Assembly (NCBI GenBank): GCA_964535655.1
Contig: CAZHTP010000001.1
Location: 186,862-250,861, forward strand
Source of the DNA: an uncultured Gammaproteobacteria bacterium
GTDB taxonomy: Bacteria > Patescibacteriota > Microgenomatia > JALYQM01
Length of the DNA: 64,000 nt
Direction of reading: 5' to 3'
The number at the start of each line of letters is the position of its first letter. Position 1 is the stretch's first letter. Position numbers and translations under genes: made by a program. Positions 16,983-44,410 of the stretch are shown here, one piece after another. The notes beneath the pieces were generated by a model, which saw only the letters and a program-made list of their open reading frames with translations, was not told the DNA's origin and searched no databases.

Positions 16983-18137
16983 ATGCAAGAAGAAGCTAAG
17001 TATAAGAAATATTTTATTCCCTTTTCGTTTGCTACGTGTGCCCTATTCTTATCATTGTTTGGTATCTTAATGATTTATGATGCGTCTTCATTTTCTAAAG
17101 CGCAGTCACAGATGATCTGGTTTATATTGGCGATTTGTTCTGGGCTCTTTTCTATGAGTATCGACTATCGATTTTGGAAAAAGCTTTCGTGGCCAATGTA
17201 TATTTTTTCGGTTATTTTATTGATACTCGTTCTTATCCCTGGAGTGGCTGACAAAACCCTTGGCGCGCAGCGCTGGATTCGCTTACCAGCGTTGCCATTC
17301 CTGGGGTCGGTGGGGTTTCAGCCTGCAGAAATTGCGAAAGTTTCAATGGTTGTTTTTTTTGCTTCCTGGTTTTCTAAACCTGGTCGCAAAAGAGACGGAA
17401 AGACGTTTGGTGGTTTTTTATTCTTTCTCGGAATTGTAGTTGGACTGGTTATGCTTGAGCCTGATCTCGGAACAACACTTATTACCGTTTCATCAATAAT
17501 TGTTATTTATATTTTAGCGCGTGAGCCATTGAAATATATCTACCTGTTGCTTCCAGCTATGTTTTTAGGTGTGGTAATACTTATTCTTATTGCACCTTAT
17601 CGTCTTGAGCGATTACAAAGCTATTTTCATTTCTGGAGCGATCCGTTTAACACGCCAGATAGCCTTGGTGCGACGTATCATATTCGCCAAGCAATTATAG
17701 GTATTGGCTCAGGTGGTCTGCTTGGAACCGGTCCCGGACAATCACGACAAAAGTATGGTTATTTACCCTTTGCCGAGACTGATTCTATTTTTGCTATTAT
17801 TGGGGAAGAGTTTGGTTTTTTCGGAGTCACTTTATTTTTGATTGTTTTACTCTTATTTATGCGACAGGGATTTCTTATTGCCGATCGAGCCGATGAAGAT
17901 TTTGGCCGGTTAATGGCAGCGGGTTTTATTACATGGTTTGGAGTGCAGATCTTTCTTAATATTGGGGCAATGTCGGTCCTTATCCCGTTTGCTGGAGTGC
18001 CGTTACTGTTTGTTTCCTATGGAGGTTCGGCCCTTGTTGTAGGATTTATTGCTGTCGGTATTTTAATGAATATTGCCTTTTCGACGAGTAGGAATCAAGG
18101 GATCCGAACGTCTGGCGGAGCTCGAAAACGAGGATAA
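16983..18137 (+). CDS. ftsW: SEDS peptidoglycan glycosyltransferase FtsW
   Basis: 384 aa, polytopic. Conserved SEDS segments (PDLGT, GGS..SYGGSAL). Confidence 0.85.
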   Translation: MQEEAKYKKYFIPFSFATCALFLSLFGILMIYDASSFSKAQSQMIWFILAICSGLFSMSIDYRFWKKLSWPMYIFSVILLILVLIPGVADKTLGAQRWIRLPALPFLGSVGFQPAEIAKVSMVVFFASWFSKPGRKRDGKTFGGFLFFLGIVVGLVMLEPDLGTTLITVSSIIVIYILAREPLKYIYLLLPAMFLGVVILILIAPYRLERLQSYFHFWSDPFNTPDSLGATYHIRQAIIGIGSGGLLGTGPGQSRQKYGYLPFAETDSIFAIIGEEFGFFGVTLFLIVLLLFMRQGFLIADRADEDFGRLMAAGFITWFGVQIFLNIGAMSVLIPFAGVPLLFVSYGGSALVVGFIAVGILMNIAFSTSRNQGIRTSGGARKRG

Positions 18138-23387: not shown

Positions 23388-24482
23388 GTGTTGAAAAAAT
23401 TGTTCACGTCAGTGGATTATTACATTCTTATACCTGCTTTATTATTAATTTTTTTATCTTTTTTTGTTCTTTCCTCTTTTCAACCTGATTTGGCTAGGTC
23501 ACAAGCATTAAATGCGTTGATTGGCTTACTCCTTTTCTTTTTTCTTAGTATGGGACATCCTGTTGTGTATAAAGGGTATGCCTATTATGGGTATATCGCC
23601 GTGCTTTTCTTGCTCGTTGCGGTATTTGTGATTGGTGAAATTAGTCATGGTGCAAACCGGTGGATTCCTATTATTGGAAATATTCGTATTCAGCCTTCTG
23701 AATTTGCTAAACCGGTACTAATTGTATGCTTAGCAAAGTTGTTTTCTGAACAACGAATTTTCACTGTTAAGTTGTTTTTCACCAGTCTAGGGTTAACTAG
23801 TATCTATTTTCTACTCGTATATAAACAGCCAGACTTGGGAACGGCGATGATGTTTTTAGTTGTATGGGGAATTTTTTTATATCTTTCGGACATTCCTAAA
23901 AAAACATTATTGTTTGGTGTGATCGCTTTTGCGCTTGTGGTTACTATTAGTGGTCCGATTGTATGGCATTCATTACATGATTACCAACGCAATCGGGTAC
24001 TTACTTTTATAGAGCCTGAGCGTGATCCTTTAGGGACAGGCTACAATGTTTTACAATCGATTATCACGGTTGGCAGTGGAGGATTTCTAGGTAAGGGTTT
24101 TGGTAGAGGGACGCAGTCTCATAACAACTTTTTGCCCGAGCAATATACCGATTTCGCGTTTGCAACTTATTCGGAGGAGTTTGGTTTTGTAGGTGTGCTG
24201 GTTTTATTGATACTGTATTCCATACTTCTTTGGCGAATATTTAGAGTAACTGATAGTTTTAAAAGCCGCTTTGCAGTGTTTGTGTGCATGGGGGTAGGCG
24301 CGCTTATTTTTTTTCAGATTTTTGTAAATATCGGTATGAACATTGGTATTGTGCCGGTGGCTGGAATTACATTGCCATTTTTCTCTTATGGCGGTAGCTC
24401 GTTAATTTCATTTTTGGTTTGCCTTGGTCTTATTGAATCGTTTAATAAAGCTAACTCTTCTCTGGATCAAACTGATCGTTGA
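23388..24482 (+). CDS. rodA: Second SEDS family protein (RodA/FtsW-like)
   Basis: 364 aa, polytopic, same SEDS blocks as ftsW (PDLGTA, SYGGSS). AAGGAG lies 7 nt before the GTG start. Confidence 0.8.
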   Translation: MLKKLFTSVDYYILIPALLLIFLSFFVLSSFQPDLARSQALNALIGLLLFFFLSMGHPVVYKGYAYYGYIAVLFLLVAVFVIGEISHGANRWIPIIGNIRIQPSEFAKPVLIVCLAKLFSEQRIFTVKLFFTSLGLTSIYFLLVYKQPDLGTAMMFLVVWGIFLYLSDIPKKTLLFGVIAFALVVTISGPIVWHSLHDYQRNRVLTFIEPERDPLGTGYNVLQSIITVGSGGFLGKGFGRGTQSHNNFLPEQYTDFAFATYSEEFGFVGVLVLLILYSILLWRIFRVTDSFKSRFAVFVCMGVGALIFFQIFVNIGMNIGIVPVAGITLPFFSYGGSSLISFLVCLGLIESFNKANSSLDQTDR

Positions 24483-24515
24483 CGGTAATAGGCTTATCAG
24501 GTACAATTCTACGGT

Positions 24516-24815
24516 ATGAAATACGCAATCGTTCAATTTAACGGAAAACAATATAAAGTAGCTGAAGGCGATGTAATCGCTGTTGATGCAAATACAACGG
24601 ATTCTACCCTCAATTTTGACCAAGTTTTGGTTGTTGGTGGGGATTCAGTTCAGTTTGGTGCTCCGTTTGTAAAAGGTGCTGTTGTTAAAGCTACGGTGCT
24701 CCGTGATGTAAAGGGGCCAAAAATCCGTGTTGCTAAGTTTAAGGCTAAATCAAACTATCACCGCGCAACCGGTCATCGTCAACACCTCAAACAGATTCGC
24801 ATTGATTCCATCTAA
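24516..24815 (+). CDS. rplU: 50S ribosomal protein L21
   Basis: MKYAIVQFNGKQYKVAEGDVI. Confidence 0.9.
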   Translation: MKYAIVQFNGKQYKVAEGDVIAVDANTTDSTLNFDQVLVVGGDSVQFGAPFVKGAVVKATVLRDVKGPKIRVAKFKAKSNYHRATGHRQHLKQIRIDSI

Positions 24816-24832
24816 TCTGGTACAATCTACCT

Positions 24833-26083
24833 ATGCATGACTATTTTTTCGTATTAGGTCGATCTATCGACTTGTGTCGAGCAGAATTCGATGCTCTGAT
24901 CCATTCGTATAAACCTCAAAATGAATTTGAAGTTGGTCCGGTGGTGGTATGTTCTACCGATTCCGAAGTTCCCCTTAAACCGCTTTTAAAGACAGCGGGT
25001 GGTTTGGTAAAGGCTGGTTTAGTTGTCGATTGGTTAAATGCTGATTGCTCCCTCGATGAGCTCGTCACCAAGATTGTTTCCATTCTTCGTACTCACTTTT
25101 CAGATAATAAGAAATTTGCTTTTGGTATTAGTTTGTATGGCACTAAAACTCACCAAGTATCTCCTATAAACTTACACAAAGAAGTTAAGGATGCCCTTAG
25201 TGCTCAAGGAAATCCTTCCGAATTTGTTCTTCCGGAAGGACAGGAACTTACTTCAGTACAACTCGAGAAATACCGCCTTATGGGAGAAAAGGGGGTTGAA
25301 ATAGTCTTAATCTACTCCAAAGATTCCCTGATTGTCGGTTTAACTAAGGCTGTTCAACCATTTGAGACCTGGTCCCAAGCAGATTATGGTCGTCCTTTCC
25401 GAGACGCTAAATCAGGAATGTTGCCACCTAAAGTGGCACGAATGATGATTCAAATTGGTCTTGGTGCATATTATTCAATTTCCCGCAGAGAAGAGGCTCC
25501 CGTAATTTTTGATCCTTTTTGCGGTAGTGGAACTGTTCTTACCGAGAGTCTTCGGCTAGGGTGCCGAGCTGGTGGATCAGATAATTCCGAAAAGGCAGTG
25601 CATGACTCGATTGAGAATGTTACTTGGATTCGTTCTTCTTCATTGTACTCTGGAGAAGATGAACAATCTTCATTTTTTCCCTATACACGGGAATATAATG
25701 TTGAGATAGCGGTGCCAATATTTCAGTCCGATTCAGCACACATCGCTACTGTTTTAACGCCTAAGAGTGTCGATATTATTGTCACGGAGAGCTACCTGGG
25801 GCCAGCGTTTAGTGAGGTACCAACTCCTGGTAAAATTGACCGGATTATTAAAGGGCTTGAGAAGCTTTATATCGGTTCATTTAAGACGTTCCACACGGTT
25901 TTAGCCGATAAAGGAATTATCGTATTTGCCGAGCCGGAATACTTTATGCATGGAAAGAGCTATAAAGTAGGTATTATTGACAATTGTGAGCGTTTTGGCT
26001 ATACTGCAATACGACAACCGATACTTTACAAGCGCGAGAATGCGTTAGTGGGGAGAAGAATCGGAATACTAAAGAAGAAATAG
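24833..26083 (+). CDS. Putative RNA methyltransferase-like protein (COG0116/THUMP-associated class I SAM methyltransferase fold) inserted between rplU and rpmA
   Basis: Motif I DPFCGSGTVLTESL..G, preceded by LPPKVARMMI (compare APLKETLAAA in RlmL/Trm11). Where motif IV should be (DIIVTESY), the expected (D/N)PPY is replaced by TESY. Confidence 0.5.
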   Translation: MHDYFFVLGRSIDLCRAEFDALIHSYKPQNEFEVGPVVVCSTDSEVPLKPLLKTAGGLVKAGLVVDWLNADCSLDELVTKIVSILRTHFSDNKKFAFGISLYGTKTHQVSPINLHKEVKDALSAQGNPSEFVLPEGQELTSVQLEKYRLMGEKGVEIVLIYSKDSLIVGLTKAVQPFETWSQADYGRPFRDAKSGMLPPKVARMMIQIGLGAYYSISRREEAPVIFDPFCGSGTVLTESLRLGCRAGGSDNSEKAVHDSIENVTWIRSSSLYSGEDEQSSFFPYTREYNVEIAVPIFQSDSAHIATVLTPKSVDIIVTESYLGPAFSEVPTPGKIDRIIKGLEKLYIGSFKTFHTVLADKGIIVFAEPEYFMHGKSYKVGIIDNCERFGYTAIRQPILYKRENALVGRRIGILKKK

Positions 26084-26094
26084 GAGATAGCACA

Positions 26095-26346
26095 ATGGCA
26101 CATATTAAAGCTGGTAAAACAACAAAAGGTAACAAAGATTCCATTTCCAAGCGACTTGGTATAAAAATGTATGCCGGAGAGAAAGCTCTTGCTGGTAACA
26201 TCTTAATTCGTCAACGCGGCACTCGTTACATTGCTGGGGTGAATACCTATTATGGTAATGACTTTACTATTCACGCTAAAATAGATGGTGTCGTCAAGTA
26301 TGGTACTCGTTTTGGGAAGTCGGTTGTTTCGGTTGTTTCGGCTTAG
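26095..26346 (+). CDS. rpmA: 50S ribosomal protein L27
   Basis: MAHIKAGKTTKGNKDS; no N-terminal propeptide. Confidence 0.9.
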   Translation: MAHIKAGKTTKGNKDSISKRLGIKMYAGEKALAGNILIRQRGTRYIAGVNTYYGNDFTIHAKIDGVVKYGTRFGKSVVSVVSA

Positions 26347-26366: not shown

Positions 26367-26393
26367 AAATCCTCCTTTTAAGGGGGATTTTTA
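26367..26393 (+). terminator. Rho-independent terminator after rpmA
   Basis: AAATCCTCCTT / AAGGGGGATTT hairpin followed by a T-run. Confidence 0.6.
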
Positions 26394-27355: not shown

Positions 27356-28450
27356 TTAGGCTACCCACATATTCGCTGTGAAATCGTTCACTAACTTAAG
27401 TTGAAGTATAGCAAAAATGATATAGAGAATGAATCGTAATCGCTTAGATTGGGTTGTTCCTCCAAGCACCATGAACGCAGGAAAGACGACTAATATGTAG
27501 CGAGCCATGCCTACTAAGCTTCCCGACATCAGAGGTATACTAATCATCGCTACACTATACATAAAATAGTTTAAAGAAAGCGTCTTGTATGTTTTTTTAA
27601 GTAACAAGAGTCCTGCGATTGCACAGATCCAATCGAGTACAACATAATTAAACGAAAAGGTGGTAATGAACTCATGAACCACGGGCGCCGCGTCAAATAG
27701 AGCCTTAGTTGGTAATGTGAGTTGACAGCGATTGTTAACAGAACACCACTCTCTTTGGGCTTCAAGGAATAAGAAAGGATTGTTAAATTTTATTTTTAGA
27801 AAGAGCATATATCCTAGAATGCCACTAAAAGAGATTATCATTAGATTAATTTTTCTCCATAGCTTTGTCTTTGTTGTGAGGAAGGCTATTACTATTCCTG
27901 AGCCATTCAAACGAGTTGCGCTACAGAGTCCTCCAAAGAGTGCAGATAGGTAGTACCTTTTGTGTTCAAGCATTAAAAAAGATAGCATGGTCGTCACTAA
28001 GAAAAGATTCTCTGTGTAACTTGCAAGTAAAAATATGGTTGAAGGAAATAGAGCGAAAAGGATGAGGCTTGTTCGTGCATTTATTTCTGAAGTGATTTTT
28101 TTGCACAGTAAATAAAATAAAATAAATACAGTGAGATTAAAGAGTATTGAGAGTACAAATCCTACTGCAATGCTATTGCCGAAACTGGTTATGTTGATAA
28201 GAAGTGGCCATAACGGAAAGAATGCATGCTGAGGGTACTGATATCCTTTTAACGCAATTGATACGTAGTGTCCTGAATCCCAATAAGTCGCCCACGATAG
28301 ATATATCCTTTCGTATACCGTATTTGAACTGTCAGTTATAAAAATATGTTGCTGAATAAATAGTTGATAAAACAACAGGTATGTGCGCCATGCTAAGAAT
28401 ACATATAGTGGAAATTGTACTTTGCCAATGAGTTTAAAATACTTTTCCAT
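27356..28450 (-). CDS. Polytopic membrane protein, GT-C-type glycosyltransferase-like (PIG-V/mannosyltransferase-like)
   Basis: 11-12 predicted TM helices. An N-terminal loop pattern WDSGHY..IA..GY....AFFPLWPL, as seen in GT-C mannosyltransferase-like families. Confidence 0.4.
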   Translation of the reverse strand: MEKYFKLIGKVQFPLYVFLAWRTYLLFYQLFIQQHIFITDSSNTVYERIYLSWATYWDSGHYVSIALKGYQYPQHAFFPLWPLLINITSFGNSIAVGFVLSILFNLTVFILFYLLCKKITSEINARTSLILFALFPSTIFLLASYTENLFLVTTMLSFLMLEHKRYYLSALFGGLCSATRLNGSGIVIAFLTTKTKLWRKINLMIISFSGILGYMLFLKIKFNNPFLFLEAQREWCSVNNRCQLTLPTKALFDAAPVVHEFITTFSFNYVVLDWICAIAGLLLLKKTYKTLSLNYFMYSVAMISIPLMSGSLVGMARYILVVFPAFMVLGGTTQSKRLRFILYIIFAILQLKLVNDFTANMWVA

Positions 28451-35332: not shown

Positions 35333-35378
35333 CTTTTTTTGTAATAGTATATCGTCTCATTTCACTTAGTTTGCTTTG

Positions 35379-35462
35379 TGCCGAGGGAGGGAGTCGAACC
35401 CTCACATCCATTATAGATATTGGTTTTTGAGACCAACGCGTCTGCCATTCCGCCACCCCGGC
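35379..35462 (-). tRNA. tRNA-Leu (anticodon CAA), type II with a long variable arm; CCA not encoded
   Basis: Folded by hand: acceptor GCCGGGG/CCTCGGC, 3-bp D-stem, anticodon loop CUCAAAA, T-loop TTCGACT. Confidence 0.8.
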
Positions 35463-44317: not shown

Positions 44318-44391
44318 GGACTCTTAGCTCAGTTGGTTAGAGCGTCACATTGACATTGTGAAGGTCAGAGGTTCGAGTCCTCTAGGGTCCA
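44318..44391 (+). tRNA. tRNA-Val (anticodon GAC)
   Basis: Hand-folded cloverleaf: acceptor GGACTCT/AGGGTCC, D-loop AGTTGGTTA, anticodon loop TTGACAT, T-loop TTCGAGT. Confidence 0.8.
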
Positions 44392-44410
44392 CATATAGAG
44401 TAAAAGCAGA

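Follow-up and report, generated by a model that had tools for sequence, protein, structure and literature searches.

A gene between rplU and rpmA encodes a predicted Trm11-like RNA methyltransferase of a family with an invariant glutamate in motif IV

Introduction

Among the methyltransferases that carry a THUMP domain, those of COG1041, the group of Trm11, have been described as exclusive to archaea and eukaryotes (PMC5291279), and in 2023 TrmN was the only THUMP-related tRNA methyltransferase reported from bacteria (PMC9957541). Here we examine a gene found at positions 24833..26083 (+ strand) of a 64,000-nucleotide stretch of DNA from an uncultured bacterium (assembly GCA_964535655.1, contig CAZHTP010000001.1, positions 186,862 to 250,861; hereafter the window). 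It lies between rplU and rpmA, and its product of 416 residues is predicted to combine a Trm11-type architecture with a motif IV built around glutamate.

The target choice of THUMP-containing enzymes is explained by a "ruler" model, in which the fixed spacing of THUMP domain and catalytic pocket selects the position to be methylated (PMC5291279, PMC7641767, PMC9957541). Methyltransferases acting on planar amino groups have the accepted motif IV signature [N/D/S]-P-[P/I]-[Y/F/W/H] (PMC7641767). Motif IV reads 254-DPPY-257 in the T. kodakarensis (Tko) enzyme (PMC5291279), 248-DYPY-251 in that of A. fulgidus (Af) (PMC7641767) and N-L-P-Y in Trm14 (PMC5291279). The D248A mutant of AfTrm11 is dead, and indeed replacing the catalytic Asp by Ala kills both AfTrm11 and yeast Trm11 (PMC7641767). 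In TkoTrm11, the residues D185, D208, D235 and D254 of the S-adenosylmethionine (SAM) pocket have been subjected to alanine scanning (PMC5291279).

Considering the evidence below, we estimate a probability of roughly 0.55 that the window protein is an active SAM-dependent, Trm11-like RNA methyltransferase, most likely acting on a guanine N2 in the acceptor/D-arm of tRNA, at G10 as in Trm11.

Family assignment and architecture

The gene and the segments of its product were delimited as follows.

24833..26083, + strand: predicted SAM-dependent RNA methyltransferase of Trm11 architecture, 416 residues (open reading frame, UPF0020, profile against PDB, AlphaFold2, Foldseek)
24833..25360, + strand: ferredoxin-like domain (about residues 1-70) and THUMP-like domain (about residues 71-176), boundaries approximate
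25361..25426, + strand: linker, about residues 177-198, with conserved W180, D184, R187-P188 and G195-M-L-P198
25427..26080, + strand: Rossmann-fold methyltransferase domain, about residues 199-416, aligned to TkoTrm11 residues 156-331
25511..25534, + strand: motif I DPFCGSGT, predicted to bind SAM, read from the translation
25628..25720, + strand: clade-specific insertion, residues 266-296, located past the helix that follows motif II and before motif III
25784..25801, + strand: motif IV equivalent TESYLG, E319 standing where Trm11 has its catalytic Asp and S320 where the family usually has Pro

In order of increasing E-value, a profile of 118 family members (alignment A2) searched against PDB sequences retrieved T. 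kodakarensis Trm11 (5e71) at E=1.3e-18, over the linker and the entire catalytic domain, A. fulgidus Trm11 (6zxw) at E=5e-12, a YpsC-like protein (3ldu) at E=1.8e-7, Trm14 (3tlj) at E=9.4e-5, RlmL (3v97) at E=5e-3 and TrmN at E=0.01, the RlmL match being confined to motif I. An AlphaFold2 model of the window protein built on the same alignment has a mean predicted local distance difference test score (pLDDT) of 95.3 and a predicted template modelling score (pTM) of 0.94. When this model was compared with PDB structures by Foldseek, the top full-length match was AfTrm11 (E=7e-24; template modelling score, or TM-score, 0.71-0.74 normalised to the target). On the same normalisation TkoTrm11 gave 0.73, TrmN 0.63 and Trm14 0.54-0.55, the latter two with E about 1e-16 to 1e-17. 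RlmKL gave 0.32-0.34 normalised to the target and 0.44-0.49 normalised to the query; it was significant, as were the YpsC-like structures 3ldu and 3k0b (E about 1e-12 to 1e-13). Hence, by sequence profile and by predicted full-length fold, the closest known family is Trm11/COG1041.

A preliminary description of the locus, made from the sequence, had proposed a class I SAM methyltransferase of the UPF0020/THUMP-associated group with motif I DPFCGSGT, and had compared it above all with RlmL/COG0116. The first part agrees with our results. As to the second, RlmL/COG0116 is ruled out as the nearest family, given a match of E=5e-3 on motif I alone, a poorer fold score and no NPPY. Of the two Pfam families it had named, UPF0020 (PF01170) matches the window protein marginally, at 22.8 bits for a gathering cut-off of 22.3, and matches all of the 34 aligned family members (best E=2.9e-19). 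The Pfam THUMP model (PF02926) matches none of these 34 at E<=0.01, so that the THUMP-like fold is assigned on structure alone.

In the model, the architecture is that of Trm11, with three domains: N-terminal ferredoxin-like, THUMP and Rossmann-fold. Residues 1-70 are predicted to follow the order beta-alpha-beta-beta-alpha-beta and to be continued by an alpha/beta module up to about residue 176. This N-terminal module was recognised through full-length superposition on Trm11, Trm14 and TrmN and through a Foldseek match to the ThiI-like protein PH1313. The conserved residues of the linker are invariant columns in both family alignments (A1 and A2), R187-P188 aligning with Tko R157-P158, and a conserved GMLPPKVARMM segment stands upstream of motif I. 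The "THUMP-family-like linker" noticed at first reading (LPPKVARMMI) is well placed, the segment being the THUMP-to-catalytic linker and the first helix. Within motif I, D227, P228, C230, G231 and G233 are invariant in the 118 sequences.

The clade-specific insertion, IRSSSLYSGEDEQSSFFPYTREYNVEIAVPI, of roughly 30 residues, is restricted to the wider clade of the window (homologues P0002-P0015) and is gapped in most other members. The pLDDT in this region (residues 271-300) is 89-91.

Motif IV and the catalytic residues

For the comparison of catalytic residues, the window protein and Trm11 fragments were aligned to the family profile. TESY lies at the end of the predicted strand beta-4 (E313-319 in the model), and the alignment to TkoTrm11 pairs E319 with D254, S320 with P255, Y321 with P256, L322 with Y257 and G323 with G258. 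Against AfTrm11, which reads T-D-Y-P-Y-L, HMMER pairs the E with D and P-Y-L with P-Y-L, leaving a one-residue deletion in the family. A regular-expression scan of the whole window protein found no [DNS]P[PI][YFWH]-type motif elsewhere, including the canonical DPPY or NPPF.

Glutamate occupies position 319 in all 331 family sequences and is never replaced by Asp, Asn or Ser. At position 320 Pro prevails (300 sequences), followed by Thr (12), Gly (12), Ser (4), Ala (2) and Val (1), and position 321 is Tyr or Phe in 302/331, followed by Leu or Met and then by Gly. On this alignment the family signature is (T/S/C/A)-E-P-(Y/F)-(L/M)-G, of which the window's TESY is a rare and minor lineage variant, Pro to Ser. 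The closest relatives (68-74% identity) read AEAY, TEPY, AESY and TEPY, which indicates that position 320 tolerates change in the window's clade, in which E, Y, L and G stay the same. Thus the placement of TESY at motif IV made in the preliminary description is borne out, whereas its view of a "degenerate" motif that has lost its prolines is not: the family normally keeps one Pro and its Glu is invariant, E-P-(Y/F) prevailing among orthologues and Ser being present in only 4/331. The new subfamily it had considered stands in so far as a separate subfamily exists, but this is defined by the family-wide Glu, only the Pro-to-Ser change being lineage-specific.

A side observation concerns the preceding residue. 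Sequences with a non-Pro residue at position 320 (T, G, S, A or V) tend to have lost Thr at 318 as well (to C, S or A): about half of them have, compared with about 7% of the Pro sequences, in a hand count of the motif table uncorrected for relatedness.

The other residues of the set are largely retained. Indeed, Tko D185 of motif I corresponds to D227 and D208 of motif II to D250, each in 330/331 sequences, and D235 of motif III to D300, which is Asp in 274/331. The SAM-pocket residue F187 corresponds to F229 (116/118). Moreover, Tko R317 (Af R306) corresponds to R401 (116/118) and Tko R324 (Af R313) to R408 (117/117 in A2). Tko R317 is implicated in tRNA binding and catalysis; Af R313 is strictly conserved and a proposed contact with the substrate backbone. 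The Gly after motif IV, N262, the L345-Y346 pair, P368 and Y399 are also kept in the family. The SAM-pocket residues and the two arginines are retained by thousands of diverged homologues, and within the motif the closest clade varies only at position 320.

Near-invariance extends to the SAM-binding aspartates, the carboxylate of motif IV, its aromatic residue and the two arginines conserved in Trm11, which makes an inactive protein, one of the options raised at first reading, unlikely. The residue pattern is probably that of a working enzyme and not that of a decayed paralogue.

Family distribution and naming

A word-indexed search returned 1,097 homologues, mostly labelled Patescibacteria, and an exhaustive profile search gave 2,527 representatives at 50% identity with E<=1e-30. 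These numbers, together with the confidence of the structural model, rule out a chance open reading frame. By the labels of the homologues, the family spans Patescibacteria, Bathyarchaeia and DPANN archaea. A Bathyarchaeia query of the Glu type retrieved 1,520 matches, all of them close Bathyarchaeia relatives, and Bathyarchaeia homologues read TEPDLGP, with an Asp at the position expected for the stacking aromatic.

The databases name these proteins variously: "tRNA G10 N-methylase Trm11" at JGI; "methyltransferase domain-containing protein", "DNA methyltransferase" or "hypothetical protein" at NCBI. Automated annotation based on COG thus already labels them Trm11. A literature search on Trm11 in Patescibacteria or the candidate phyla radiation, on COG1041 and on rplU/rpmA with a methyltransferase found no description of the family or of its Glu motif. 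The family is not mentioned in a 2026 preprint on methyltransferases of this radiation, and a survey of archaeal tRNA modification (PMC13520502) contains nothing on Glu-type variants.

Many species-representative records in which the Patescibacteria-type gene and its gene order occur bear the title "uncultured Gammaproteobacteria" bacterium or "Pseudomonadales" bacterium (L001, L002, L004, L008-L010, L013, L014 and others among our loci). Such titles look unreliable on these metagenome-assembled genomes.

Gene neighbourhood and transcription

Across the family, neighbourhoods were compared in 80 loci from species-representative genomes, about 67 of them bacterial. L21 and/or L27 flank the methyltransferase gene in 19 of the about 67 bacterial loci, typically in the full order FtsW-L21-methyltransferase-L27-ParB that is present in the window; in a relative of 71% identity the order is FtsA-FtsZ-FtsW-L21-methyltransferase-L27-ParB-signal peptidase. 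The rplU/rpmA context appears in at least five deep sub-clusters with less than about 35% mutual identity, each of them uniform, which include Saccharibacteria and Dojkabacteria groups; in the Saccharibacteria loci L058, L063 and L078 the gene adjoins rpmA. In one large cluster a Parcubacteria-type context is found, with the gene between ychF and SSB/S6/S18/EF-P and the neighbours on the opposite strand. In Bathyarchaeia loci (L059, L062, L065-L068, L071, L074, L075, L077) the gene is beside uL16 (L10e), often with a gene for a KsgA/Dim1-like methyltransferase. Hence, the gene is persistently associated with translation genes and the rplU-methyltransferase-rpmA arrangement is old.

On the operon position the preliminary description had based the suggestion of an rRNA or ribosomal-protein substrate. 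Because the rplU-methyltransferase-rpmA order is not family-wide, the operon does not establish a ribosomal substrate. Furthermore, tRNA methyltransferase genes also occupy ribosomal protein operons, as trmD does in the E. coli operon rpsP-rimM-trmD-rplS, so that this position is weak evidence, and a neighbourhood of translation genes does not discriminate a tRNA from an rRNA substrate.

In the window itself, the methyltransferase gene starts with ATG and is separated by 17 nt from rplU and by 11 nt from rpmA. The elements around it are:

24479..24507, + strand: promoter-like site TTGACG-17 nt-TACAAT, directly 5' of rplU (consensus scan, 10/12 positions)
24516..24815, + strand: rplU, ribosomal protein L21, 99 residues (Pfam Ribosomal_L21p E=2e-32; NCBIfam TIGR00061 E=1.1e-25)
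26095..26346, + strand: rpmA, ribosomal protein L27, 83 residues (Pfam Ribosomal_L27 E=2.8e-25)
26367..26390, + strand: terminator-like hairpin and T-run, 3' of rpmA (scan; 10-pair stem, 4-nt loop, T-rich tail)

L27 begins with MAHIKAGK and its residues 2-80 match positions 1-79 of the Ribosomal_L27 model. As the match begins at residue 2, L27 has no N-terminal propeptide, and the open reading frames and Pfam matches here agree with the gene order and the propeptide-free L27 of the preliminary description. A Prp (YsxB) analogue was considered for the intervening gene and is ruled out, with no Prp-family match in Pfam or NCBIfam and an L27 that starts at its mature N-terminus.

The site at 24479..24507 is a putative promoter, proposed from its consensus match alone. 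The hairpin at 26367..26390 is the sole convincing terminator-like site on the + strand in the scan, which found none comparable between rplU and rpmA. Given a promoter-like site before rplU and a hairpin after rpmA, the three genes look like one co-transcribed unit, and the short gaps of 17 and 11 nt also fit a single operon.

The octamer GGTACAAT, which contains the -10-like TACAAT, is present twice, at 24500-24507 (8 nt before the rplU ATG) and at 24819-24826 (6 nt before the methyltransferase ATG), and the second copy is preceded by TG, resembling an extended -10 element. No Shine-Dalgarno sequence is seen for rplU or for the methyltransferase gene; rpmA has GGAGA and parB has AAGGAG. Transcripts of rplU and of the methyltransferase gene may be leaderless or have very short leaders, possibly with an internal promoter for the methyltransferase gene.

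On the 5' side of rplU lies a division and cell-wall cluster (penicillin-binding protein, Mur ligases, MurB, MurA, FtsW, MurG, FtsA, FtsZ and a second SEDS protein of FtsW/RodA type), and on the 3' side of rpmA are parB, a gene for a PIG-V-like glycosyltransferase and a signal peptidase gene. Further features of the window are:

16983-18137 and 23388-24482: two SEDS-family genes (FtsW/RodA/SpoVE) of the same division cluster (Pfam E=1.5e-84 and 9.1e-90)
27356-28450, - strand: 364-residue multi-pass membrane protein directly after parB, with a weak match to PIG-V-type mannosyltransferases (Pfam PF04188, E=1.8e-8)
35378-35462, - strand: tRNA-Leu(CAA)
44318-44392, + strand: tRNA-Val(GAC)

The first SEDS gene precedes murG, and the second directly follows ftsZ and is followed by rplU. 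This second SEDS gene before rplU recurs in related loci with the order FtsW-L21-methyltransferase-L27-ParB. No RNA genes other than these two tRNA genes were detected in the window. The 3'-CCA is not encoded by either of them, which implies that a CCA-adding enzyme is needed before any THUMP-type enzyme could recognise these tRNAs.

Proposed function and alternatives

By analogy with Trm11, catalytic activity on a tRNA, with the N2 of G10 as target, would be expected of the window protein, and both tRNA genes of the window carry G10, which makes such a substrate plausible. The tRNA would dock with its 3' end and acceptor stem on the module of ferredoxin-like domain and THUMP, and the conserved linker (W180, D184, R187-P188, G195-M-L-P-P-K200) would keep the spacing to the catalytic domain constant. 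D227, D250 and D300 would hold SAM, and the target base would flip into the pocket formed by the variant motif IV. There, Glu319 could stand in for the Asp of Trm11 and accept a hydrogen bond from the exocyclic amino group, and Tyr321 (Tyr/Phe in the family) could provide the stacking surface for the flipped base. Position 10 is moderately favoured over position 6 because the global fit is better to Trm11 than to TrmN or Trm14.

Several points weigh against this proposal. When global folds are compared, Trm11 is preferred to TrmN by a moderate margin, which leaves position 6 as a candidate besides position 10. Among NCBIfam models the Trm11-family model TIGR01177 scores best, with 36.6 bits, far under its cut-off of 316.55. 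No characterised member of the family was found. The accepted motif IV signature does not apply, with Glu at its first position and the aromatic displaced by one. We know of no demonstrated amino-methyltransferase with a Glu at the site of the motif IV Asp, and METTL14, whose motif is EPPL, is inactive. THUMP methyltransferases also include enzymes with substrates other than tRNA, namely RlmL on 23S rRNA and THUMPD2 on U6 snRNA. Finally, Trm11 is reported from archaea and eukaryotes and not from bacteria, which are described as without m2G10 (PMC7641767).

The first alternative is that the protein is a 23S rRNA methyltransferase, an analogue of RlmL (THUMP plus UPF0020, m2G2445) acting in 50S assembly. 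We regard it as rather doubtful. It would explain the co-transcription with L21 and L27, and it draws on the embedding of the gene in the rplU-rpmA unit, on the repetition of this placement in at least five deep sub-lineages of less than about 35% identity and, in other lineages, on the vicinity of S6/SSB/S18/EF-P/YchF or of uL16 and a KsgA-like gene (Bathyarchaeia). The structural matches to RlmKL, 3ldu and 3k0b are significant as well. However, both the sequence and the full-length structure are clearly closer to Trm11 than to RlmL, the Trm11-conserved arginines are kept, and ribosomal protein operons host tRNA methyltransferase genes too, trmD being the example. Moreover, the Parcubacteria-type gene is opposite in strand to its neighbours and hence not co-transcribed with them.

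It is also conceivable, though unlikely, that the same scaffold and the same docking on tRNA serve another chemistry, such as methylation of adenine N6, of cytosine N4 or of a ring nitrogen needing a general base, or serve a position other than 10. A Glu found in 331/331 sequences, and never as Asp, Asn or Ser, suggests a requirement unlike that of the canonical amino-methyltransferases. Asp to Glu is nonetheless a conservative change, and the pocket-forming residues and conserved arginines agree with Trm11. The geometry of the motif can be read either way: compared with TkoTrm11 the aromatic has shifted by one, or, compared with the D-Y-P-Y of AfTrm11, the loop lacks one residue, and Bathyarchaeal sequences read TEPDLG with Asp instead of the aromatic, but AfTrm11, a bona fide Trm11, itself departs from DPPY with its DYPY (PMC7641767). 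The UPF0020-family enzymes do include an m4,2C synthase (8vyd).

Much less probable is an RNA-binding or ribosome-associated factor that is catalytically inactive because its motif IV has degenerated. The E-S-Y-L of the window is without either proline of DPPY, its UPF0020 score is marginal, and METTL14 offers a case of a Glu-containing motif in an inactive protein. Against this, the acidic residues that contact SAM and the glycines of motif I, which dead paralogues usually lose, are invariant with the window's clade included, and a Glu in 331/331 sequences argues for a functional role. Least probable of all is a methyltransferase of L27, L21 or another ribosomal protein, to which the position between rplU and rpmA, the protein glutamine methyltransferases PrmB and PrmC among textbook motif-IV-type amino-methyltransferases and a distant Foldseek match to PrmA might point, but PrmA superposes poorly (TM-score 0.26-0.29 normalised to the query, root-mean-square deviation above 20 Å), the synteny is not family-wide and in all characterised cases the ferredoxin-like plus THUMP unit serves to bind an RNA 3' end (PMC9957541).

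Returning to the Trm11-like RNA methyltransferase that we prefer, a wider proposition may be put forward tentatively. The family could be an ancient sister of Trm11 in Patescibacteria, Bathyarchaeia and DPANN archaea, which makes m2G10 in bacteria or carries out a different modification of tRNA or 23S rRNA by means of Glu and a contracted motif IV, its co-transcription with L21 and L27 reflecting a real coupling to large-subunit or translation function.

What deserves attention is less TESY itself than the Glu-type motif, which is invariant in these Trm11-like proteins of bacteria, and we do not see in it a new kind of system. The family counts thousands of diverged bacterial members in the candidate phyla radiation; its predicted architecture is that of Trm11 in full, its catalytic motif is systematically altered, and this distribution contradicts the textbook statement that Trm11 is absent from bacteria. 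If these proteins are active, the active-site signature of amino-group methyltransferases would need to be widened, the translation equipment of these organisms, which is very reduced, would gain a modification enzyme, and a further gene family would be common to candidate-phyla bacteria and to DPANN and Bathyarchaeia archaea.

Comparison with known systems

The window protein shares with Trm11 (5e71, 6zxv, 6zxw) the order of ferredoxin-like domain, THUMP, linker and Rossmann-fold domain. The two also have in common motif I DPF.G.G, the aspartates of motifs II and III, the Gly that follows motif IV, the N-L motif with N262, an L-Y pair beyond motif IV, P368, Y399 and the two arginines that correspond to Tko R317 and R324. 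Trm11 requires a partner, Trm112, in eukaryotes and some archaea. Motif IV differs, being D-P-P-Y or D-Y-P-Y in Trm11, T-E-P-(Y/F)-(L/M)-G in the family and T-E-S-Y-L-G in the window, and so does the length, 346 residues in TkoTrm11 compared with 416 in the window protein, which has the clade-specific insertion. The host differs as well: the window protein is bacterial (Patescibacteria-type, by the labels of its homologues), whereas Trm11 has been described as absent from bacteria (PMC7641767, PMC5291279).

TrmN and Trm14 (tRNA m2G6; 3tma, 3tlj) likewise join THUMP to a Rossmann-fold domain, and with TrmN a bacterial host has a precedent (PMC9957541), but their sequence similarity is weaker and their inter-domain geometry fits the window protein less well than that of Trm11. 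TrmTS (TK1257, PMC12255305), considered as a precedent for a THUMP methyltransferase with other chemistry, has a SPOUT catalytic domain and is unrelated. RlmL/RlmKL and the YpsC-like proteins of COG0116 (23S rRNA m2G2445; 3v97, 3ldu, 3k0b) have THUMP plus UPF0020 and a similar motif I. In Firmicutes the usual gene between rplU and rpmA encodes the cysteine protease Prp (YsxB), with which the window protein shares this position only, fold and function being unrelated. Taken by sequence and by predicted structure, the window protein is thus a member of a Glu-type, Trm11-like sister family, which is Trm11 in architecture and falls outside both the catalytic signature and the TIGR01177 cut-off.

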